This document shows, piece after piece, positions 15,533 through 56,882 of a DNA stretch of 64,000 nt. Made by a program: the position numbers and the translations under genes. How positions within the stretch are numbered: the first letter of the stretch is position 1; the number at the start of each line of letters is the position of its first letter. The notes under the pieces were generated by a model, which was not told where the DNA came from, did no database searches, and worked only from the letters and a program-made list of their open reading frames with translations. The DNA lies in NCBI GenBank assembly GCA_016184145.1, contig JACPDF010000030.1, positions 76 to 64,075 on the forward strand, in the 5' to 3' direction. The stretch comes from Candidatus Woesearchaeota archaeon (GTDB taxonomy: Archaea > Nanobdellota > Nanobdellia > Woesearchaeales > GW2011-AR4).

Positions 15533-15569
15533 TATACAGAAGTAATATGGCTTTATTTATAAATATTGA

Positions 15570-15655
15570 CGCCAAGGGCAGGATTTGAACCTACGTGTCC
15601 TTGCGGACACACGCTTTCGAGGCGTGCGCGTTAGACCGGACTCCGCCACCTTGGC
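15570..15655 (-). tRNA. tRNA-Ser(CGA), no intron
   Basis: Minus-strand read GCCAAGG..CCTTGGC-G. Anticodon arm CACGC-CTCGAAA-GCGTG. Long variable arm GTCC-GCAA-GGAC. T arm GTAGG-TTCAAAT-CCTGC. Confidence 0.9.
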
Positions 15656-15689
15656 ATAATAATATGCAAAGAATTCTTATTTTAAAAAC

Positions 15690-24176: not shown

Positions 24177-24590
24177 TCATCTGACCAGCAGCTTACTGAC
24201 AAGAGCCCTCAAGGCTTTTATCCTTAAAATCATTTCTTTCGCTTCCTGCTCAGAAACTTCCTTGCCATAATAATTTACGCTATTCCTTGCCTTTCTTATC
24301 TCATCAAATTCCTCTGCCTGATGGCTTTCACTTAGGACTTCTCTCAGAAATGCAGTATAGCACTCATGATTGTAGACTTTAAACCCGTTTTTAAGCGCCA
24401 AAGCCTCCAAAAGCTCCCTAAGCGAGTCATAGGCGAGGGACAGCTTTGAGGCTGCGGTAATATTATCCATGCTAAGCTTGCTTTCAGACTCCATTTTGTT
24501 TTTGCTGGACTTTACAAGAGAATTTATCATGTCCTCATCAGGCTTTGCTTCCTTGGCAATTCTTTTATTGCAGCACTCTTCCCAGTCCAT
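24177..24590 (-). CDS. HEPN domain protein (toxin partner of an MNT nucleotidyltransferase)
   Basis: ..EFDEIRKARNSVNYYG.. (R-N-x-x-x-Y HEPN motif). Lies 1 nt downstream of the NTase gene. Confidence 0.75.
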   Translation of the reverse strand: MDWEECCNKRIAKEAKPDEDMINSLVKSSKNKMESESKLSMDNITAASKLSLAYDSLRELLEALALKNGFKVYNHECYTAFLREVLSESHQAEEFDEIRKARNSVNYYGKEVSEQEAKEMILRIKALRALVSKLLVR

Positions 24591-24591
24591 G

Positions 24592-25101
24592 CTAGGTTCT
24601 CAGCCTCCCGCTTAAAACATAGCCGTTGGCTATATTGCTTGCCAATTCCCTGCTCTTGGCTTTTGCCAATCCCTCAAACCAGTAAATCTGTATTTTTCTC
24701 TTCAGCTTATTTTCAAAACTTTTAATGTCGAGCTTTCTTTCGCTTGCGAAGATCGCCAAATCAATATCAGAATCATTTTTTGCCTCCGCCTTGGAAAGCG
24801 AGCCAAAAAGCACTATTGCGGGGCTCATTAAATGCTCCTCAATATAGGCTGTCAATTCTTTTAATTTTTGGCGCCAATAGATTCTCGACAAGTCTATGAA
24901 AACTTTGCTGTCCTTGTTTGCATAGAACAGGAGGTTATTCCTATACGCGGTTTTGAGCAGCAATCCTTCTTTCACATAGTAATTCAGCATTTTGGATGAG
25001 GTTGGGGGTGTTATATGGGTCAATTTCGCATACTCCCTCACATTGATTCTTCTGTAGCAATCCTCAAAAAACGGGCTTAAATCATTAATTATTTTTAACA
25101 T
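24592..25101 (-). CDS. minimal nucleotidyltransferase (MNT) with N-terminal wHTH
   Basis: LFGSLSKAEAKNDSDIDLAIF matches GS-x(9-10)-DxD. Confidence 0.8.
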   Translation of the reverse strand: MLKIINDLSPFFEDCYRRINVREYAKLTHITPPTSSKMLNYYVKEGLLLKTAYRNNLLFYANKDSKVFIDLSRIYWRQKLKELTAYIEEHLMSPAIVLFGSLSKAEAKNDSDIDLAIFASERKLDIKSFENKLKRKIQIYWFEGLAKAKSRELASNIANGYVLSGRLRT

Positions 25102-25828: not shown

Positions 25829-26143
25829 ATGATTATTGCAAACACAGATTATGTCGCTGGCAAAAAGATAAAGGAAACCCTCGGCATAGTGAGGGGCAGC
25901 ACAGTAAGGGCAAAGCACATAGGCAAGGATGTAATGGCTATGCTAAAGCAGATTGTAGGGGGAGAGATTACAGGATATACTCAAATGATAAATGAAGCCA
26001 GAGATGAAGCAGTAAAAAGAATGGTGGAAGAGGCAAAAAAGCTGAAAGCCGATGCAATTGTCAATGTAAGGTTTGCAACATCCGATATAATGCAGGGAGC
26101 TGCTGAAGTCATGGCTTACGGGACTGCTGTTAGGTTAAAATAA
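25829..26143 (+). CDS. YbjQ/UPF0145 family protein
   Basis: ..GIVRGSTVRAKHIGKDVMAMLKQIVGGEI.GYTQMINEARDEA...M.EEAKKLKADAIVNVRF.. is typical YbjQ. Start taken at the internal Met MIIANTD (25829). Confidence 0.8.
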   Translation: MIIANTDYVAGKKIKETLGIVRGSTVRAKHIGKDVMAMLKQIVGGEITGYTQMINEARDEAVKRMVEEAKKLKADAIVNVRFATSDIMQGAAEVMAYGTAVRLK

Positions 26144-26156
26144 TCATAGAGGAAAA

Positions 26157-26282
26157 TTAGTCTACTAAAGAATCAATAAGCTCTTTCTGCTGCCGGGACC
26201 AGACCTTGTCAGGATGGTTTCTGATGTATTTAGCCCAGTACCTGATCATCCATTCCCTGTCTTCCTTGTTCTTATTTTCCAT
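26157..26282 (-). CDS. hypothetical 41-aa protein
   Basis: MENKNKEDREWMIRYWAKYIRNHPDKVWSRQQKELIDSLVD. Its start overlaps the 3' end of the upstream NTase-fold gene by 11 nt. Confidence 0.3.
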   Translation of the reverse strand: MENKNKEDREWMIRYWAKYIRNHPDKVWSRQQKELIDSLVD

Positions 26283-26844
26283 ATTCCTTAATTAGGCTTT
26301 CATAGTATTTAATTTTTTCTTCAGAGACATGCCCTTTAAATACCTCTTTCAGGTGCAGAGCATCTTCTTTGTCCTTTTCGCTTCCAAGCACTATTAGCTT
26401 ATAAGGTATCTGAATCTCAATCGGGGATATGAACAAGGTTACACCTCTTATTTTTACCTTAGCTTTTTCCTTTAAGGTCTCTTTGTCTATCAAAGAATCA
26501 GCAAACTTAAGCTCGATATTTGGAATGACTTTTTTCTTTCTTGCAAACCTTATCGAGTGTTTTGTCTGCAACAGTTCAAAAAGTTCACTAATTTCTTCTT
26601 CATTAATGCACCAGAACTCTTTTGACAAATCCTTATAGAGCTTTTTGAAATTGCCTTCATCAATCTTTGGGATTAATATATCTATGTCTTCTGAAATGCG
26701 GCTCCTGCCAAAAAGTATGGCAACATACCCAGAAACCAGAACATAATCTGTATGCCTTTTAAGGACATTTACAAAGTCAATGACTAATTTATCGAGATTG
26801 TTTAATATTTTATCCAAGATAACAACTTTGCCTTTTATTTTCAT
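26272..26844 (-). CDS. nucleotidyltransferase-fold protein (AbiEii/DUF6036-like)
   Basis: SGYVAILFGRSRISEDIDILI matches G-x-x-A...R.S.DxD. I place the start at Met30 (26844) because codons 1-29 of the tracked ORF read through a tRNA-derived repeat. Confidence 0.55.
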   Translation of the reverse strand: MKIKGKVVILDKILNNLDKLVIDFVNVLKRHTDYVLVSGYVAILFGRSRISEDIDILIPKIDEGNFKKLYKDLSKEFWCINEEEISELFELLQTKHSIRFARKKKVIPNIELKFADSLIDKETLKEKAKVKIRGVTLFISPIEIQIPYKLIVLGSEKDKEDALHLKEVFKGHVSEEKIKYYESLIKEYGK

Positions 26845-26913
26845 GCAATAGGGGAGTTCTTTTTGCTTTATATATTCTTCCCCTAAATGTCCAGTGGTAA
26901 TTAATGAGCCTGC

Positions 26914-26934
26914 AGGGATTCGAAAATACATTTT
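26914..26934 (-). repeat. distal 21-bp copy of the tRNA-Arg 3' exon (candidate att site)
   Basis: ATGAGCCTGCAGGGATTCGAA is identical to 31162-31182, in the same orientation. Confidence 0.8.
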
Positions 26935-26984
26935 CTCATCTCAATTTGTTATGCAAGCAGATACTATCCATTTCCCCCAGTAAC

Positions 26985-26994
26985 CTTTATAAAT
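26985..26994 (+). promoter_or_regulatory. TATA-box-like element (CTTTATAAAT) 22-31 nt upstream of the MutS-like gene ATG
   Basis: Same motif and spacing as srp54. Confidence 0.45.
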
Positions 26995-27015
26995 TGACAC
27001 TACTACCAAATAACA

Positions 27016-28944
27016 ATGTTAGATGATAAGGTAAGAGCTATCGATTATGAAACTATTGCCATCCTCTTTAGAAACCAGCCATTACGAACCGGGAAATATT
27101 CTGAATGGTGTTTGAGTCCTCGGTATGAGAAAGAAAAAAGACCTGAAAGGATGTTGGTTGATTCTTTTTATGGGCCACTCCAAGAAAGATTATCTAATCT
27201 AATGCCCCCGCTAGAAAAAACAAAAAGGGAGATTAAAGTCAAAAGGGAATATCCATTTAAAGGGGAAAAAGTGATTCATATACCCATAAATAACTTTTTA
27301 ATGGCTTCGTATGGTATGATGGGCGGTAAAAGTCTCGAATATTTCCCTACAATTAGAAAAGACAAGGAAAGGGAAGTTATTATGCTTTATGAAGATTCTT
27401 GGGTGAAGCCTCTACCAAACATTAATGCAATTCAGAGAAGACAGCAAGAATTGCGGGAATTGGTAGAAGATAAACCATATGCAGATGGGATTGATGCTCT
27501 TGCTCAATCCTTGAATAACATACTCCTGCCTCACCTCCATCTTTCCTCACTTACAAAATTGCTGGTTTCAAATACCTTAGGCGCATCAAGGTCTATGCCT
27601 ATCCATAGAAAGGACCAAGATGCCTTTTACCAGGATTACCTACGTTTTTGCAGGGAGTTTGTCCGTTGGTATGATGAAGCGAAAGACATTTCTTCCTCTG
27701 TTCAGCCAACATCCCAAAATATGAAGGGAACTGTCAAAGGGATTTGTTCTATTTTAGCTGAAAGCCCTCTCGTTGCTTCCTATAAGACAGCTCGCAATCT
27801 TGTGGATGATGCTCCTGCTTCTTTTGGCAAATTACGTGAGAGGGTTATGGCGTGCACTTCAGGAAAACCATTAGTTACACAAGAGAAACTGGAGAAATTG
27901 ACTGAAATGGTTCGCAATGAAGCGAGGAAAGCGCGAGACTTTTATTTTGAACACCCACCTGAGTGGTTAAGAATATTTCAAGAAGACAAATCAAAAAAAG
28001 GAAGTGTGATGGCAACAGAAAAGGAATACATGGATTTCTATCTTTACAAAGAACAAATGAGGAGATTAGGTTATTTTTCCATAAAGTCAGGCTTAACCGT
28101 CCCATGGCCATTTGCCCAATCTGACAATGCAATCGTGACAATAAATCGCCTTGCAAATCACTTTACAGCAGCCCTCTCTCATGCTGAATATATTAGAAAT
28201 AAGGAAGGGTGGACAGTTCCCAATACTCTTCCAAAAAGATTAGGGGTTATAGATATTAAAAACGGGTGGTATCCTCTAACTCCGCTATACAAAGGAGAGA
28301 AGTTTGCCTATAATGACACCTACCTTAACGGCCAGCAAAGAGTGGAAATACTTGATGGCACCAATAGGGGCGGCAAAACAATTGATATGAGAAAAACCGC
28401 TTTTGCAGTTGTTTGCGCGCTTGCAGGAAATTATGTCCCGGCTGGAGAAGGAACAAGAATATCTTATTTTGATAATGTCTATATTCGTCTCAGAAGTGGT
28501 GGATTGAACGACCAAAGTGCTCTTGAGCAGGAGCTTAATTCTACACATAAACTCATTGAAAAAATAAAATCTGGCTCTGCAGCCCTGGTCTGCATTGATG
28601 AGCCTTGGTCTTCTACGAATGCAAAGGAAGGGGAAGGGCTGACATATGGGTTAGTGAGGCGAATATCGGAAATCAGGCAAATAGCGGAAATTCCGAGCGC
28701 GAGGGGAGTTTTCGCAATCCATTACCCTCAAATGAGGCAGCATACTTTAGGAATTGAAGGGGTTGCACATTCCCATTTCGAATATAGTGAGGAAAATGGA
28801 GAAGTCATAACAAATCACCAAAAGCTTCCTGGGCCAAATCCACAGCCAGGGTACGCTTTCGTGATAGCGCGCGCAGAAGGACTCCATCCACAGGTGTTAG
28901 CCCATGCAATGAGGCTTTACCAGGAGAAGCACCATGAAAAGTAG
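27016..28944 (+). CDS. MutS-core/domain V-like ABC ATPase, paralogue A (no mismatch-binding or Smr domain seen)
   Basis: C-terminus YNDTYLNGQQRVEILDGTNRGGKTIDMRK (Walker A-like), ..NYVPAGEG.., ..DQSALEQELNS.., ..LVCIDEPWSSTNAKEG (Walker B), ..FAIHYPQM. The order and spacing match MutS domain V. Confidence 0.7.
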   Translation: MLDDKVRAIDYETIAILFRNQPLRTGKYSEWCLSPRYEKEKRPERMLVDSFYGPLQERLSNLMPPLEKTKREIKVKREYPFKGEKVIHIPINNFLMASYGMMGGKSLEYFPTIRKDKEREVIMLYEDSWVKPLPNINAIQRRQQELRELVEDKPYADGIDALAQSLNNILLPHLHLSSLTKLLVSNTLGASRSMPIHRKDQDAFYQDYLRFCREFVRWYDEAKDISSSVQPTSQNMKGTVKGICSILAESPLVASYKTARNLVDDAPASFGKLRERVMACTSGKPLVTQEKLEKLTEMVRNEARKARDFYFEHPPEWLRIFQEDKSKKGSVMATEKEYMDFYLYKEQMRRLGYFSIKSGLTVPWPFAQSDNAIVTINRLANHFTAALSHAEYIRNKEGWTVPNTLPKRLGVIDIKNGWYPLTPLYKGEKFAYNDTYLNGQQRVEILDGTNRGGKTIDMRKTAFAVVCALAGNYVPAGEGTRISYFDNVYIRLRSGGLNDQSALEQELNSTHKLIEKIKSGSAALVCIDEPWSSTNAKEGEGLTYGLVRRISEIRQIAEIPSARGVFAIHYPQMRQHTLGIEGVAHSHFEYSEENGEVITNHQKLPGPNPQPGYAFVIARAEGLHPQVLAHAMRLYQEKHHEK

Positions 28945-30556
28945 TGTTCTTGATGAGGAAACAAGAAAAATTTTTACCTATGATGACGAATTAGAAAGAT
29001 GGGACCGTCTCTGGAGGAAGATTGATGGCCTCATTAATTTTGGGGTGCCAAATGTTCCGTCCTTGGATGATTTGCTCTTAAGCCCCAAAACTGACATAAA
29101 TGAAATAAATGGCCAATTGGATGCAGTGGAATATTTAATCAGGAATCCGGATTTCTTAAAGCAATTTAAAAGAATTGATGAAGATACTCATGCTGCTATT
29201 GGCGGGTTCTTTTTTTCTGAGTCTCCAAGACTGGTAAGAAAAGGATGGGAGAACTATCTGGCCAACTCACCAAAAGATAAGCAATTAGCCGAATTATTAA
29301 GATATTTGGAGCGAGAAACAAAAGACCATTGGGAGCAGGCAATTGAGGGAATAAAAAATGCAATAGGATTTTTCAATCTGGCGCAAAAGCTTCCAAGAAA
29401 ATTAGAAATTAAAAAACATACTCCAAAAAAAATTGAAAGCATATGTGCGGAATATGATAAGTTAATTTCATCCCCACAGGTTACTGAAGCATTAGATTAT
29501 GCTTCAAGAGCAGTTGGTCATTTTGAAACCATTCAACAAAAATACTCATCAGATAAACAAAAAGAAAAGTATGCGCATGTCATTGATTTGAGGCGAAAAA
29601 AAGTAGATAACCCTAATTTGAGATTGAAAGATTATGATAAACATATAGAAAAACTAAGGAGAAGCCAAGAACGTTCTAGGGATTATGAAATTAGACTTGT
29701 AAAGCGATTAATTTCTGAGCTTGGCGATTTGATTAAAACGGAAGATGCCAACAGAAACTTAGAAATCCTTACTGGGATGAAAAAACAGTGGAATTTAACC
29801 GAGCTGTTCACCTATATGGAATTAGCAGCAGTTGCCTACAGAAACAATTGGACTCGCCCTGAGATTGCTCCAAGGGAAGAAAATTGCCTCATCATAAGGA
29901 ATGGTGTGTTTTACCCCCGTCAGAGAAGAAGGCATGATTATACACCTAATGACACTTACTTGAATTTGTATCTGGCCAATACTCATCGTGTCGAAATTCT
30001 TGAGGGAGTTAATATGGGCGGTAAAACTATGGATATGAAAAAGGCCCTCTATATTGCTACATTGGCATTGTCTGGCAGCTTTGTCCCAGCAACATATGCA
30101 TGTGTTTCTGCCAGAGACAGGATTATCCTCAGAGGCAAGGGAGATGGCCAGGATCGCTCAGCCTTCGTACAGGATGTTGCAAGAGTAAACGAAATTGTGC
30201 CTCCTGCTGGGCAATATTGGCTGGCCGCATTAGACGAGCCATTTACTTCTACAGAAGCTGATGGAGGGATGTATCTTACGGCAGGTGTTGCAATAACTGT
30301 CGCTGGACAAGGAAATTCATTGTTGATTCTCTCCAGCCATTATCCCAGCTTAAAAGAATTATTAGATGGTGATTCTACAGTTAAATTCAATCATTTCCCT
30401 TTTACTATGGAAGGAAAAAAAGTGACGTTTCCGCATAAAAAACAAGAAGGAGGGTTAAAAGATTATGCGTATGCTATCGCAGTTGCCAGGTCTCGCGGGT
30501 TTGATGAAACAACCTTGCAATACGCAAGTGAGTATCTCCAAAATCAGAAAAAATGA
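28934..30556 (+). CDS. MutS-core/domain V-like ABC ATPase, paralogue B
   Basis: PNDTYLNLYLANTHRVEILEGVNMGGKTMDMKK, ..SFVPATYA.., ..DRSAFVQDVAR.., ..LAALDEPFTSTEADGG, ..LSSHYPSL. Its start overlaps the stop of paralogue A by 11 nt (ATGAAAAGTAG). Confidence 0.7.
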   Translation: MKSSVLDEETRKIFTYDDELERWDRLWRKIDGLINFGVPNVPSLDDLLLSPKTDINEINGQLDAVEYLIRNPDFLKQFKRIDEDTHAAIGGFFFSESPRLVRKGWENYLANSPKDKQLAELLRYLERETKDHWEQAIEGIKNAIGFFNLAQKLPRKLEIKKHTPKKIESICAEYDKLISSPQVTEALDYASRAVGHFETIQQKYSSDKQKEKYAHVIDLRRKKVDNPNLRLKDYDKHIEKLRRSQERSRDYEIRLVKRLISELGDLIKTEDANRNLEILTGMKKQWNLTELFTYMELAAVAYRNNWTRPEIAPREENCLIIRNGVFYPRQRRRHDYTPNDTYLNLYLANTHRVEILEGVNMGGKTMDMKKALYIATLALSGSFVPATYACVSARDRIILRGKGDGQDRSAFVQDVARVNEIVPPAGQYWLAALDEPFTSTEADGGMYLTAGVAITVAGQGNSLLILSSHYPSLKELLDGDSTVKFNHFPFTMEGKKVTFPHKKQEGGLKDYAYAIAVARSRGFDETTLQYASEYLQNQKK

Positions 30557-30665
30557 GTCATCTCCTATAGAAGTGCACTTTCTGATCCTCTTCCCCGGAT
30601 ATGGGAGAAAGGTAAAATGAGCCCGAGGGGACTTCCAAATCCTGACCAAAAAGTCCGGGATATTT

Positions 30666-30695
30666 GAATTTTCCGGCCGAAAATTCGCAATTTTC
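30666..30695. repeat. overlapping short hairpins related to the GAAAAT(T)C family
   Basis: GAATTTTC-CGGCC-GAAAATTC (30666-30686) and GAAAATT-CGC-AATTTTC (30679-30695), nested in GTCCGG...CCGGAC (30652-30707). Confidence 0.5.
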
Positions 30696-30754
30696 AAGCA
30701 TCCGGACTCACCCATTCCTAGAATAAGTTTTATATATAAAAATAGTGTTTTGGA

Positions 30755-31093
30755 TTACGCTTGATTGTATAGCATATTATGGACTAGATACTCAACATTT
30801 CTTAAGACATCAATAGAAGTTGGGCGATAACCGTCAGGATTTTCAAAGCCTTCCTTTCCATAATTCCAACAAACAGAGAGAGGGACATCCGATTTAAATA
30901 CGAGGGCTTTGTGTTCTCCTCTAATGTCAATTATCCTACCAGCTGACCTTTCCCTTACCAGATACTCAATGAGTTTCTCTATTCCGGAAAATTCCTCATG
31001 GTGAAGCTCAAAGCTGCTGCCTGCAGGCCTCTGATGCATTACGCCCCATTCCTTCTTTGGTTTTGATGTCATGTATAGAATTATTGTTGGCAT
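30755..31093 (-). CDS. hypothetical protein (orphan; islet cargo)
   Basis: 112-aa ORF with no recognisable motif. It lies between the MutS-like pair and tRNA-Arg. Confidence 0.45.
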   Translation of the reverse strand: MPTIILYMTSKPKKEWGVMHQRPAGSSFELHHEEFSGIEKLIEYLVRERSAGRIIDIRGEHKALVFKSDVPLSVCWNYGKEGFENPDGYRPTSIDVLRNVEYLVHNMLYNQA

Positions 31094-31161
31094 ATTTTTT
31101 AGTGGAGGATTGTTATTTATAAATTTAGCTCTTTTTTAGTGATAACTAAACAAGTAAGATG

Positions 31162-31182
31162 ATGAGCCTGCAGGGATTCGAA
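31162..31182 (-). repeat. proximal 21-bp repeat, equal to the 3' exon of tRNA-Arg
   Basis: Identical to 26914-26934. It covers TTCGAATCCCTGCAGGCTCA plus 1 nt, which is exactly the part downstream of the 53/54 intron. Confidence 0.8.
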
Positions 31183-31298
31183 GTTCAGTACTGCAAAAAT
31201 AAACTTGCAATATCCCTGATCAATCGGTCCCTGCAAGCAACGCTTGCTCGCGTCACCCACCGAAGCCGACCGCACTATCCTGGTTATGCTACAGGCCC
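31163..31298 (-). tRNA. tRNA-Arg(UCG) with two 31-nt introns (37/38 and 53/54)
   Basis: Acceptor GGGCCTG/CAGGCTC with A73. D arm GCAT/GTGC. Anticodon stem GTCGG/CCGAT with loop CTTCGG..A. T arm CAGGG..TTCGAAT-CCCTG. The 53/54 intron (31183-31213) has a perfect BHB (TCAG/CTGA with bulges GGA and ACT). The anticodon intron (31229-31259) has a 3-of-4-bp central helix. Confidence 0.8.
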
Positions 31299-31423: not shown

Positions 31424-32569
31424 ATGAATGAAGGAAAACTATCCAAAGAAGAGCAAATAAGGTATTCGAGGCATTTAGCGCTTCCAGAAATAGGCATTGA
31501 GGGGCAGAAAAAGCTGAAGAAAGCTAAAGTGCTGATTGTAGGAGCTGGCGGCTTAGGAAGCCCTGCTGCTGTTTATTTGGCTGCTGCCGGTGTCGGAAAA
31601 ATAGGCATTGTTGATTATGACAAAGTTGACCTGTCTAATCTGCAAAGGCAAATTCTTTATTCATTAGGGGACATTGGAAAAAGCAAAACAGCAATAATAA
31701 AAAATCAATTGAAAAAAATTAATCCAAATGCAAAAATAATAACCCATGATAAAAAATTAACTTCAAATAATGTCATGGAAATAATAAAAGATTATAATGT
31801 AATAATTGACGGCTCTGATAATTTTCCAACCAGGTATTTAGTCAATGATGCATGCGTTTTGCTAAATAAACCAGATGTTTATGGCTCTGTTTACAGGTTT
31901 GACGGACAAGTTTCGGTTTTTAATTATGAAAACGGGCCTTGTTATAGGTGTTTGTTTCCTAGTCCGCCGCCTGCAAATTTGGTTCCAAATTGCGCGGAAG
32001 CCGGTGTTTTGGGGGTATTGCCCGGAGTTATAGGAATGATACAGGCAACTGAAGCGATAAAAATAATCCTGGGGAAAGGAGAAACCTTATCCGGAAGGTT
32101 GTTGGTTTATAATGCTTTGAGCATGAAATTCAGGGAGCTAAATTTGAAGAAAAACAAAAATTGCCCCGTTTGCTCAGAGAATGCAGCAATCAAGGAGCTG
32201 ATAGATTATGATGAATTCTGCAACGGAAAAAAAGAAGATAAAAATGAAATTACAGTTCATGAATTAAAGCAAATGATTAACAACAAGGAAGATTTTGTCT
32301 TGGTAGATACAAGGGAAAAGGCTGAGCAGGATATGTGCAAAATAGAGAATGCAAAATTAGCCTCTTTTTCGGAAATTGCCAGAGGGAATCTAAAAATTTT
32401 TGATAATATCGGCAAAAACAAAAAAATTGTCTTATACTGCCATACCGGCAACAGGAGCGCATTTGTTATGCATATGCTAAAGAAAAAAGGCTATAAGAAT
32501 GTAAAGAATCTTGTTGGCGGCATAGATGCTTGGGCAAAGGAGATAGACCAACAAGTGCCAATATATTAG
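31424..32569 (+). CDS. MoeB/ThiF/UbaA-type E1-like adenylyltransferase with C-terminal rhodanese domain
   Basis: GAGGLGSP nucleotide loop, CYRC...CPVC zinc motifs, and a rhodanese active-site loop YCHTGNRS. Confidence 0.9.
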   Translation: MNEGKLSKEEQIRYSRHLALPEIGIEGQKKLKKAKVLIVGAGGLGSPAAVYLAAAGVGKIGIVDYDKVDLSNLQRQILYSLGDIGKSKTAIIKNQLKKINPNAKIITHDKKLTSNNVMEIIKDYNVIIDGSDNFPTRYLVNDACVLLNKPDVYGSVYRFDGQVSVFNYENGPCYRCLFPSPPPANLVPNCAEAGVLGVLPGVIGMIQATEAIKIILGKGETLSGRLLVYNALSMKFRELNLKKNKNCPVCSENAAIKELIDYDEFCNGKKEDKNEITVHELKQMINNKEDFVLVDTREKAEQDMCKIENAKLASFSEIARGNLKIFDNIGKNKKIVLYCHTGNRSAFVMHMLKKKGYKNVKNLVGGIDAWAKEIDQQVPIY

Positions 32570-47825: not shown

Positions 47826-48194
47826 TTATTTAACGAACTCCACTCCTTCCAAGCCTTTAAACATATAGTCTCCTGTCAGGAATTCTGCATTATATCTGCG
47901 CGCAGTTACATAGCCGATGCAATCCGCAAAACTAAATCTTTTTTTCTTGTGCTTGATTTTGAACATATTTGCTTCTCTTACAATTGAATCGTCAATTCTT
48001 ACAACCATGTCCTTTACAATATTGTAGATAACATCAGCATCTTTTTGCCCATGATGCTTTAAATAATAAAAATGCACTTCTACAAGGTTGAAGATTGTGG
48101 CGATTCCAATGTTTCCCTGCTCAACATATTTTCTGTAGAGTGGATTATCTATCGCTATTTCTATTATTGCATACGTGTCAAGAAAGATTACCAT
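47826..48194 (-). CDS. vapC: PIN-domain toxin VapC
   Basis: N-terminus VIFLDTYAII (acidic D), 122 aa. It overlaps the upstream AbrB-type antitoxin. Confidence 0.75.
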   Translation of the reverse strand: MVIFLDTYAIIEIAIDNPLYRKYVEQGNIGIATIFNLVEVHFYYLKHHGQKDADVIYNIVKDMVVRIDDSIVREANMFKIKHKKKRFSFADCIGYVTARRYNAEFLTGDYMFKGLEGVEFVK

Positions 48195-56100: not shown

Positions 56101-56577
56101 TTACAGCAGCTCTAAAAACCTTGCGTAAACTTCCGTGGATATATAAAAGCCGTCTTTTATCATAGTTTTTAAAATATTTTTTGCATCTTCTTTGCCAATA
56201 ACTCCTTTAGTATATGCAAGATAAATGGCATATAATGTTCCATGAATTTCTACCCTCAGCAATAAAGCAAATTTTTTTGCAGTTTCGTCATCAATAAGCG
56301 CTTTAGCTTTATGCTCCTTTGCCAGTGATATTGTTTCTTTTTCTGCTTGCCCAATGTTTTTTGTTTGCAGAACTCTGCTTATTGCAGCATTTTCAACAAG
56401 AATCCATTTTTCCCTTATTGCCTTTTCTAACGCTATAAATTCTGGAGTTTGTGCTTTTTTTCTTATCTCTTCATAAATATTCTTTGAAATCATTATAGTG
56501 TTAAAGCATTTTTTAAGCAGCTCTAATCTGCCTTGCTTGCCAAGCATAATTATTGGGGAAGAATTAGAAACAATCAT
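56101..56577 (-). CDS. DUF3368-type PIN-like protein (toxin candidate)
   Basis: ..SNSSPIIMLGK.. and ..ALIDDETAKKFA.. It is a paralogue in kind of 37324-37812. Confidence 0.65.
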   Translation of the reverse strand: MIVSNSSPIIMLGKQGRLELLKKCFNTIMISKNIYEEIRKKAQTPEFIALEKAIREKWILVENAAISRVLQTKNIGQAEKETISLAKEHKAKALIDDETAKKFALLLRVEIHGTLYAIYLAYTKGVIGKEDAKNILKTMIKDGFYISTEVYARFLELL

Positions 56578-56882
56578 TTTTTTCTTAAGGCTGCCTTAAA
56601 ATCCGCTTCCAAAGACTCAACTGTGTAGTTAATGGGTATTTTTCTGTCTGCAGCAACTTTCATGAAATCAGCTAATGGAACACTGGCTATTTCTGAGGCT
56701 CTTCCTAGGCTTATATTTCTTTTACTGTATTCATCCAGAGCATATTCCAATTTTTTTTGTTTGACAGCGCTAGTCAGGAGCCTCCTTATTATATTCGACT
56801 TGTCTGTCTGCTCCTGCCTTGCAAAAAACTCTATATCCTTCTTTACGTCCTTTGGGACCCGCGCAACTACTCCTTCTGCCAT
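56574..56882 (-). CDS. UPF0175 family antitoxin candidate
   Basis: ..EYSKRNISLGRASEIASVPLADFMKV...R.IP.. is the typical UPF0175 HTH. It overlaps the downstream DUF3368 gene by 4 nt. Confidence 0.65.
   Translation of the reverse strand: MAEGVVARVPKDVKKDIEFFARQEQTDKSNIIRRLLTSAVKQKKLEYALDEYSKRNISLGRASEIASVPLADFMKVAADRKIPINYTVESLEADFKAALRKK

Follow-up and report, generated by a model that had tools for sequence, protein, structure and literature searches.

A composite, recombinase-less islet at the 3' end of an intron-bearing tRNA-Arg(UCG) gene in a Woesearchaeota archaeon

Can a small gene islet that lies between an intact tRNA gene and a stray copy of its 3' end be read as an integrated element when it encodes no recombinase? 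We addressed this question in Candidatus Woesearchaeota archaeon (GenBank assembly GCA_016184145.1), in which a tRNA-Arg(UCG) gene and a partial copy of it enclose two genes for MutS-like ATPases and one orphan gene, as listed by a first-pass annotation made from the letters alone. The window, which means the whole stretch of 64,000 nt that was analysed, covers positions 76 to 64,075 of the forward strand of contig JACPDF010000030.1, and all coordinates without a contig name refer to it. The best relatives of its MoeB, Alba, L10e and o219 proteins were found in metagenome-assembled genomes labelled Woesearchaeota or Nanoarchaeota, and the window is chromosomal DPANN DNA. We interpret the islet as a fossil, composite, serial tRNA-targeted insertion at the 3' end of the chromosomal tRNA-Arg(UCG) gene, with a recombinase that was lost or acted in trans. 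We rate this interpretation slightly above even odds, at a probability of about 0.55.

The islet, 4.3 kb in length, is bounded by an exact direct repeat, one copy of which belongs to the tRNA gene.

26904 to 26924, plus strand: distal 21-nt repeat, an orphan copy (relic) of the 3' exon of the 'W' allele, found by exact match search
31162 to 31182, plus strand: proximal 21-nt repeat, the 3' exon (T54 to A73) plus 1 nt, found by exact match search
31163 to 31298, minus strand: intact tRNA-Arg(UCG) gene, W allele, with exons at 31260-31298, 31214-31228 and 31163-31182
31229 to 31259, minus strand: 31-nt intron at the canonical 37/38 position, from in-silico splicing
31183 to 31213, minus strand: 31-nt intron at 53/54, abutting the proximal repeat, from in-silico splicing

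The 21-mer, ATGAGCCTGCAGGGATTCGAA, was present in exactly two copies in the 64 kb, both on the plus strand, and identity between them ended at both edges of the 21-mer. No third copy was found in the 64 kb at up to 3 mismatches, and 100 dinucleotide shuffles gave 0 matches. The first-pass annotation had located the second site correctly and had placed the first at 26914-26934, a slip of 10 nt. When the two introns were spliced out in silico, the resulting 74 nt were folded by ARAGORN as a canonical tRNA-Arg(tcg), which agrees with the earlier statement that the second copy is the 3' end of an intact minus-strand gene. The repeat also begins at the 53/54 exon boundary, as had been noticed; it runs from T54 to the discriminator base A73 and includes one further base. 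An intron at 53/54 is rare, being present only in the window and in contig L093 among the approximately 50 tRNA-Arg(UCG) loci compared. The unspliced W gene at 31.2 kb was called by neither ARAGORN nor Rfam, and the only tRNA that they called in the 64 kb was a tRNA-Ser (15568-15656). Because both programs miss the two-intron tRNA-Arg, automated tRNA sets of such genomes will be incomplete.

Beyond the distal copy, a short spacer leads to the gene o219, which lies in the flank outside the islet.

26876 to 26903, minus strand: 20-nt native spacer (26884-26903) and the octamer GGGGAAGA (26876-26883)
26272 to 26844, minus strand: true coding sequence of o219, a conserved archaeal gene of 190 aa

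The corresponding open reading frame (ORF), 26272-26931, runs through the distal copy and carries 29 spurious codons upstream of the ATG at 26844 (MKIKGK), as predicted beforehand. More than 350 homologues were listed, with lengths of approximately 180-220 aa (most 186-203), and the query starting from MKIKGK aligned over 85-100% of its length. In the related contig L084, a 1-nt indel shifts the N-terminal extension to another frame. A split integrase of the SSV type was rejected at this position, since the ORF over the distal copy encodes this conserved protein of about 190 aa, with homologues that start at MKIKGK.

Relatives of the locus were taken as contigs with a near-identical o219, together with 57 metagenome stretches fetched by the 3' exon pattern; sources of the related contigs include Hainich groundwater assemblies. 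L144 (7.6 kb) and L145 are collinear with the window through ArgRS, cation-efflux, DoxX, UbiA, Alba, MoeB, tRNA-Arg, o219, DUF8150, YbjQ and Redoxin genes, at 67-93% amino-acid identity, and contain neither the orphan gene o112 nor the MutS pair. Homology between the window and these empty-site contigs restarts exactly at the GGGGAAGA octamer (26883-26876). L084, L096 and L149 are occupied and carry o219, the distal copy and MutS A/B. Loci without the islet, which the first-pass annotation had recommended looking for, were thus found. They carry another tRNA allele, and for this reason an attB for the 21-mer is hypothetical.

This second allele, X, has the acceptor stem GGGCCCG/CGGGCTC and a different D-arm and anticodon stem. 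In L144 it is interrupted by two introns, of 17 nt at 37/38 and of 32 nt at 60/61, and after splicing in silico it folds as tRNA-Arg(tcg). Comparison of L144 4773-4895 and L145 with window 31163-31298 showed two alleles of one chromosomal locus, with compensatory differences through all stems. One natural population holds two very different and differently interrupted alleles of one tRNA at one locus.

A relic of allele X was found inside the islet, where the first-pass annotation had missed it (30618-30668). The features enclosed by the two repeats are as follows.

30755 to 31093, minus strand: o112 (module a), an orphan ORF of 112 aa with its own TATA-like box upstream
30589 to 30668, minus strand: X-type relic, consisting of T-loop, 60/61 intron and 3' exon (30618-30668), a 21-nt spacer (30597-30617) and GGGGAAGA (30589-30596)
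28934 to 30556, plus strand: MutS-like ATPase B, 540 aa, with MutS domain V and a weak, sub-threshold domain III
27016 to 28944, plus strand: MutS-like ATPase A, 642 aa, with MutS domain V only (Pfam/NCBIfam)

The X relic is located between o112 and the stop codon of MutS B. Over 83 nt, it matches the 3' region and spacer of the functional tRNA-Arg of L144/L145 at 89-90% identity. Both the X relic and the W relic begin at T54. On this strand, GGGGAAGA has only 2 copies in 26-32 kb, each placed 20-21 nt after a tRNA 3' relic. The locus contains three tRNA-Arg 3' ends, all in direct orientation, and its order in the tRNA sense is: intact W tRNA, o112 module, X 3' relic with spacer and GGGGAAGA, MutS-pair module, W 3' relic with spacer and GGGGAAGA, o219. 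The islet is composite, with two modules (o112 and the MutS pair), and at least two recombination events took place, because it holds a relic of the other allele together with the native spacer of that allele. The earlier proposal of an attL/attR footprint (left and right attachment sites) is therefore correct in that the repeats flank a real presence/absence segment, but the internal X relic shows that this segment is not a single simple unit.

More distant relatives suggest an order of events. W-type tRNAs without the 53/54 intron were found in distant relatives that keep the linkage of Alba and tRNA-Arg (L081, L100, L110, L127 and many others). In L100, L110 and L127, Redoxin directly follows tRNA-Arg, and in L081 one small ORF lies between them; none of the four has a MutS pair in this interval. 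L100 has no MutS pair within 9 kb beyond Redoxin, either. Because Redoxin lies within about 1 kb of the W-type tRNA-Arg in the outgroups L081, L100 and L110, we infer stepwise growth 3' of the tRNA (L100 to L144 to window), in which o219/DUF8150/YbjQ would have come first, followed by the MutS module and then the o112 module. W would be the older allele at the locus, and X in L144 a replacement.

We estimated the age of the islet from synonymous divergence (dS) and selection from its ratio to nonsynonymous divergence (dN/dS). Between the window and L084 or L096, MutS A showed a dS of 0.41 with a dN/dS of 0.26, and MutS B a dS of 0.38-0.51 with a dN/dS of 0.21. These ratios indicate purifying selection on MutS A/B and predict that the genes are functional. 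For YbjQ in the flank, dS was 0.31-0.40 and dN/dS 0.06-0.13 between the window and L096 or L149. Since the dS of the islet equals that of YbjQ, the islet is old; it has diverged together with its flank and was already present in the common ancestor of the window and the L084/L096/L149 lineages. The distal copy has meanwhile decayed, reading TTCGAAT... in the window, TTCAAAT... in L084/L096 and TACAAAT... in L149 (1-2 substitutions). The L149 copy has lost the invariant U55, as expected of an unselected relic.

Extra same-strand copies of the tRNA-Arg 3' end were detected in three further lineages among the 57 metagenome stretches. In L117 (3077-3468) and L126, a second copy of the 14-mer TCCCTGCAGGCTCA lies about 300 nt further downstream, and the two copies enclose a single 54-aa ORF. 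In L103 (157-1494), the second copy of this 14-mer is located 1.3 kb downstream, and an EF-P/aIF5A-like ORF and a 75-aa ORF lie between the copies; the element-side arm CTAATTTGGTRTYAC precedes the distal copies of both L103 and L117. The distal copy of L103 is followed by the proximal cassette of L117 at 95% identity, indicating that L103 and L117/L126 differ by inserts accreted in tandem, the newest of them adjacent to the tRNA; L103 and L126 originate from the same metagenome. L135 (749-905) has two more short copies, 60 and 137 nt downstream. These inserts measure approximately 0.08-1.3 kb, are bounded by 13-14-nt copies of the tRNA-Arg(UCG) 3' end, and none is big enough to encode a recombinase. 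Only 0.005 second copies would be expected by chance in the 332 kb scanned. The recurrence supports a targeted process of the attachment-site (att) type at this tRNA end in DPANN archaea.

The MutS-like genes of the islet are adjacent, with the 3' end of A overlapping the 5' start of B by 11 nt. A has a 400-aa N-terminal region without any known domain, and no family was detected for the N-terminal 300-400 aa of either protein. Pfam and NCBIfam found no domain I (PF01624) in A or B, and neither has an Smr nuclease domain, as both terminate with domain V. Their scores of 82-100 bits, against an NCBIfam cutoff of 480 bits, fall far below the cutoffs for MutS1 and MutS2. The identity of a mismatch-repair MutS1 was rejected because domain I is missing and only MutS_V, with the sub-threshold MutS_III of B, was recognised; MutS2 was rejected because there is no C-terminal Smr domain. 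MutS2 was found among the solved structures matching A and B. MSH4-MSH5 and archaeal MutS5 are MutS-family clamps that lack domain I. The islet proteins resemble these clamps and MutS2 in that only the ABC ATPase domain V (and the weak domain III in B) is recognisable, and differ from MutS2 in lacking Smr. Because two paralogues are encoded side by side, A and B probably form a heterodimeric DNA-clamp ATPase without mismatch-recognition or nuclease domains, a role predicted from domain content.

Only six relatives of the MutS-like proteins were retrieved from 5.8 billion proteins, and A and B were adjacent in every case (L081-L085). The pair occurs in unrelated contexts in L082 and L083. In L081, where amino-acid identity is about 50%, it directly follows a tRNA-Pro and lies about 6 kb from tRNA-Arg, near TIM, Alba and Redoxin. 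As the contexts differ among L081, L082 and L083, the pair probably relocates between genomes, although it may also have resided in this neighbourhood for a long time. Three further observations were made on these genes. A segment within MutS-like A (27767-28064) is hypervariable, with 55-76% nucleotide identity to L084/L096 and indels, compared with 80-96% in the rest of the gene. The MutS-like A orthologue in L082 (3229-5141) is divided into two ORFs of 238 aa and 393 aa, and may reflect a frameshift, a pseudogene or an assembly error. A segment resembling the 5' part of tRNA-Pro (GGGGCTGTAGTGTA...) lies directly upstream of tRNA-Pro(CGG) in L081 (9757-9896), possibly as a fragment or an intron-bearing paralogue.

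The single close homologue of o112 was 96% identical and came from a contig 99.8% identical to the window, that is, from the same strain. An exhaustive HMMER search of 1.84 billion representatives returned as further matches only weak, ankyrin-repeat-like ones, which we regard as noise. An AlphaFold2 single-sequence model of o112 had a predicted local distance difference test score (pLDDT) of 52 and was discarded as unusable.

On the interpretation of serial tRNA-targeted insertion, incoming DNA would have entered the tRNA gene by recombination where the T-loop begins (position 53/54). This DNA would have carried its own copy of the 3' exon, so that the tRNA remained functional, and the previous 3' end with its native spacer would have been displaced downstream as a relic. 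Insertion would have occurred at least twice, by a recombinase supplied in trans or lost later; in an att-type model, attP would read TTCGAATCCCTGCAGGCTCAT. Afterwards, the islet would have been inherited vertically in the clade, while the relics decayed and selection kept MutS A/B.

This interpretation may be extended to a general one, in which the tRNA-Arg(UCG) 3' end is a cassette-accretion site in these DPANN archaea. A recombinase acting in trans would insert recombinase-less cassettes of 0.08-4 kb, each with a replacement tRNA 3' end and the newest nearest to the tRNA, and the same events would exchange alleles and give rise to T-arm introns or shift their position (53/54 in the window, 60/61 in X). 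We regard the extension as doubtful. If it were true, it would be no accident that intron and repeat abut, since their junction would be a fossil recombination joint, and the locus would be a natural snapshot of the proposed link between mobile-element integration and tRNA gene disruption.

Several results weigh against tRNA-targeted insertion. No W-type empty site (MoeB, W tRNA, TAATTACC... spacer, o219) was found among the retrieved contigs. The internal relic retains 21 nt of chromosomal spacer and GGGGAAGA, which a clean integrase model does not predict; this spacer implies either that the donor was excised imprecisely, carrying flanking host DNA, or that homologous exchange occurred. Pfam, NCBIfam, PHROGs and PADLOC detected no integrase, transposase or recombinase in the islet ORFs, in accordance with what had been noted earlier, and Pfam detected no integrase, intact or split, among the other window ORFs without obvious function. 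A search of the cargo against a virus database, as had been proposed, was negative, as IMG/VR contained no matching att, MutS B or o112. The agreement in dS between islet and YbjQ speaks for long residence. The GC content (0.37-0.43) and third-position GC (GC3) of the islet are ordinary; for GC, the islet is nearly indistinguishable from its host, an outcome that the first-pass annotation had named as speaking against an element. In favour of insertion, the tetranucleotide distance of the islet was the 2nd largest of 60 equal-size windows, a mild deviation that is comparable to that of some housekeeping regions. Repeats of a tRNA end around the MutS pair were not significant in L081 (next to tRNA-Pro, p = 0.24) or L083 (near tRNA-Glu, p = 0.93). 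Finally, the MutS cargo may be an ancestral, old resident of this neighbourhood instead of an import; it need not be foreign, because the distant L081 has the pair in the same gene neighbourhood.

Other searches for a mobile origin were also negative. No defence-system or phage families were found in the islet ORFs (PADLOC, PHROGs), and the remaining window ORFs look housekeeping by eye (SRP54, aminoacyl-tRNA synthetases, EF-1 alpha, carbamoyl-phosphate synthase, exosome and proteasome subunits). A scan of IMG/VR yielded no cognate integrase-bearing element using the same att. There was no integrase among the 25 commonest Pfam families of the 63 ORFs located 3' of tRNA-Arg in the 57 fetched loci. 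Terminal inverted repeats were absent under three boundary definitions, and a test for target-site duplication found GGGGAAGA as the only duplicated octamer, which is part of the duplicated homologous blocks. A DNA transposon or insertion sequence was rejected, as there is neither a transposase nor a terminal inverted repeat. Nine Logan contigs of the window strain showed only the integrated context among the 8 places listed, and no circular or alternative junction was found among the same-strain contigs L086, L146-L148 and L151-L158, which are all integrated. The islet is not an assembly artefact, because the same junctions recur in independent assemblies. It is apparently not autonomously mobile at present. 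The suggestion of a decayed remnant fits these contigs as well as the mutating distal copy in relatives.

The absence of a recombinase from both islet and window scans, together with the retained spacer, is what would be expected if no dedicated integrase had ever been involved. Chromosomal DNA from divergent strains of the same population could have entered by homologous or homology-facilitated (Campbell-type) recombination, with the block from the T-loop to GGGGAAGA and o219 serving as anchors and the block becoming duplicated. Both relics retain 20-21 nt of the native tRNA-to-o219 spacer and the same GGGGAAGA, like two alleles of one site in tandem. Exchange of this kind has affected the flank: o219 and part of YbjQ (26008-26883; to 26939 against L084/L096) are 95-100% identical to contigs of three other lineages. 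The dS of this tract (approximately 26008-26883) is 0.03-0.05 against all lineages including L144, compared with 0.3-1.0 for neighbouring genes; between L144 and the window, MoeB, Alba and Redoxin have a dS of 0.67-0.99. The tract is thus clearly a recent inter-lineage homologous exchange, and it ends exactly at GGGGAAGA beside the distal relic. The drop in identity at the repeat between the window and L084 (98-100% on the left, about 87% inside) was accordingly set aside as weak proof of an islet boundary, because the high-identity patch is confined to o219 and the next gene, YbjQ, has a dS of 0.31-0.40, the islet value. However, the W and X blocks are homologous only in patches of 7-8 nt (TTCRAAT and GGGGAAGA), a very short length for homologous recombination. 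Homologous exchange also leaves unexplained why both relics start at T54 and why 14-nt tRNA-end repeats with a conserved arm occur in other DPANN lineages. We consider it an unlikely origin of the islet.

Less probable again is an ancestral composite, or at least an ancestral MutS pair at this place. L144/L145 would then have been emptied by deletions between the GGGGAAGA octamers and between two tRNA 5' regions, and the repeated 3' exons would be scars left when the locus was duplicated or inverted at an earlier time. The L144 junction is reproduced exactly if the DNA between the 8-nt direct repeats is deleted; the long residence implied by the equal dS of islet and flank, and the position of the MutS pair in the distant L081, at most about 6 kb from tRNA-Arg, Alba, Redoxin and TIM, are also consistent with this history. 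A decayed 5' half of X, possibly present upstream of the relic (approximately 30669-30739), would add to it. This feature is tentative: compared with the spliced X allele it beat all 3000 shuffles, but that choice was made post hoc, and the test with the unspliced allele was not significant. Moreover, the outgroups L100, L110, L127 and L081 have no MutS pair between tRNA-Arg and Redoxin, so that insertions would be needed anyway in addition to two extra losses, and a random duplication is not expected to cut twice at T54.

A functional distal 21-mer, as a split-tRNA 3' half or as a signal in the processing or regulation of o219 or MutS A, is highly improbable: it does start exactly at the exon boundary and lie about 25 nt upstream of the o219 TATA-like box, but its identity with the gene stops at T54, the adjoining sequence is unlike intron 2 and cannot pair with the 5' half (the split-tRNA version was rejected for want of a complementary or intron-like leader and for the mutated U55 of L149), it mutates in relatives, and in the empty-site genomes an o219 that is nearly the same lacks any element of this kind upstream.

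We compared the islet with known systems. Archaeal tRNA elements of the pNOB8 and SSV types likewise combine a reconstituted, intact tRNA at one border with a partial copy in the same orientation a few kilobases away, and the segment between varies among strains (PMC3293823). In contrast, the islet has no intact integrase beside the tRNA, as in the pNOB8 type, and no integrase split over the att sites, as in the SSV type; the ORF over its distal copy belongs to a conserved gene, spuriously extended, that does not encode an integrase, and its repeat is only 21 nt compared with 44 bp for SSV1. Because the defining integrase is absent, we did not file it as either type; it behaves like a decayed islet that is flanked by att sites and lacks a recombinase.

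Among published systems, the nearest analogue is the tRNA-Thr(GGU) locus of Caldiarchaeum subterraneum, for which an integration model of intron gain was proposed (Sugahara et al. 2012, PMC3293823). Both loci show two alleles with different introns in one population, a tRNA fragment kilobases away and an insertion between, and in both the extra intron goes with the insertion-bearing allele. The Caldiarchaeum fragment is a 5' fragment, and its 1.8-kb insert, which recurs six times in that genome, carries a gene for a recombinase (PMC3293823), whereas our islet has 3' fragments of two alleles, no recombinase and a single-copy insert. Partial, non-canonical tRNA gene fragments left by integrated elements were described in Thermococcaceae (PMC9897764), and cryptic integrated elements in Thaumarchaeota (PMC6563490). 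The islet shares with these cases orphan tRNA fragments as integration footprints, and many of those elements are decayed as well; it differs in its DPANN lineage, its MutS-like pair as cargo and fragments derived from two alleles of an intron-bearing tRNA. Bacterial cis-mobilisable elements are flanked by att sites, lack recombination genes and accrete in tandem, the most recent one adjoining the target gene. The islet is similarly att-flanked, recombinase-less and made of tandem segments, and L103 compared with L117 shows the stacking. It differs in belonging to the domain Archaea, and IMG/VR offered no integrase-bearing partner.

Additional features were observed around the islet. MoeB (ThiF and rhodanese domains, 31424-32569) lies between Alba and tRNA-Arg, where most relatives have Alba directly before the tRNA. 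Its best matches in GTDB are bacterial (Marinimicrobia and Acidobacteriota, 53-56%) except for two Woesearchaeota (62-63%), suggesting that MoeB is an older insertion on the 5' side of the tRNA. Among GTDB species genomes searched through MoeB, the closest were these 62-63% identical Woesearchaeota, which have no tRNA-Arg beside MoeB. Toxin-antitoxin-like pairs are present at 24177-25101, 47826-48194 and 56101-56882 (a nucleotidyltransferase with a partner, a PIN protein, and a DUF3368 (PIN-like) protein with UPF0175); one such pair is found immediately to the left of the Redoxin flank, at the end of the synteny with L144.

The islet thus belongs to a familiar kind of tRNA-targeted insertion, but it is old and composite. 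Even in DPANN archaea, in which multi-intron tRNAs escape the standard finders, past insertion can be recognised from a partial tRNA copy, and the MutS-like pair is a very rare two-gene module that moves between genomic contexts. The locus adds to the known cases an intron that abuts the repeat, recurrent small inserts in other DPANN archaea, and two tRNA alleles with relics of both in one genome. Such alleles and relics are rare comparative material for the proposed role of mobile-element integration in tRNA intron gain and tRNA gene replacement in Archaea (PMC3293823).

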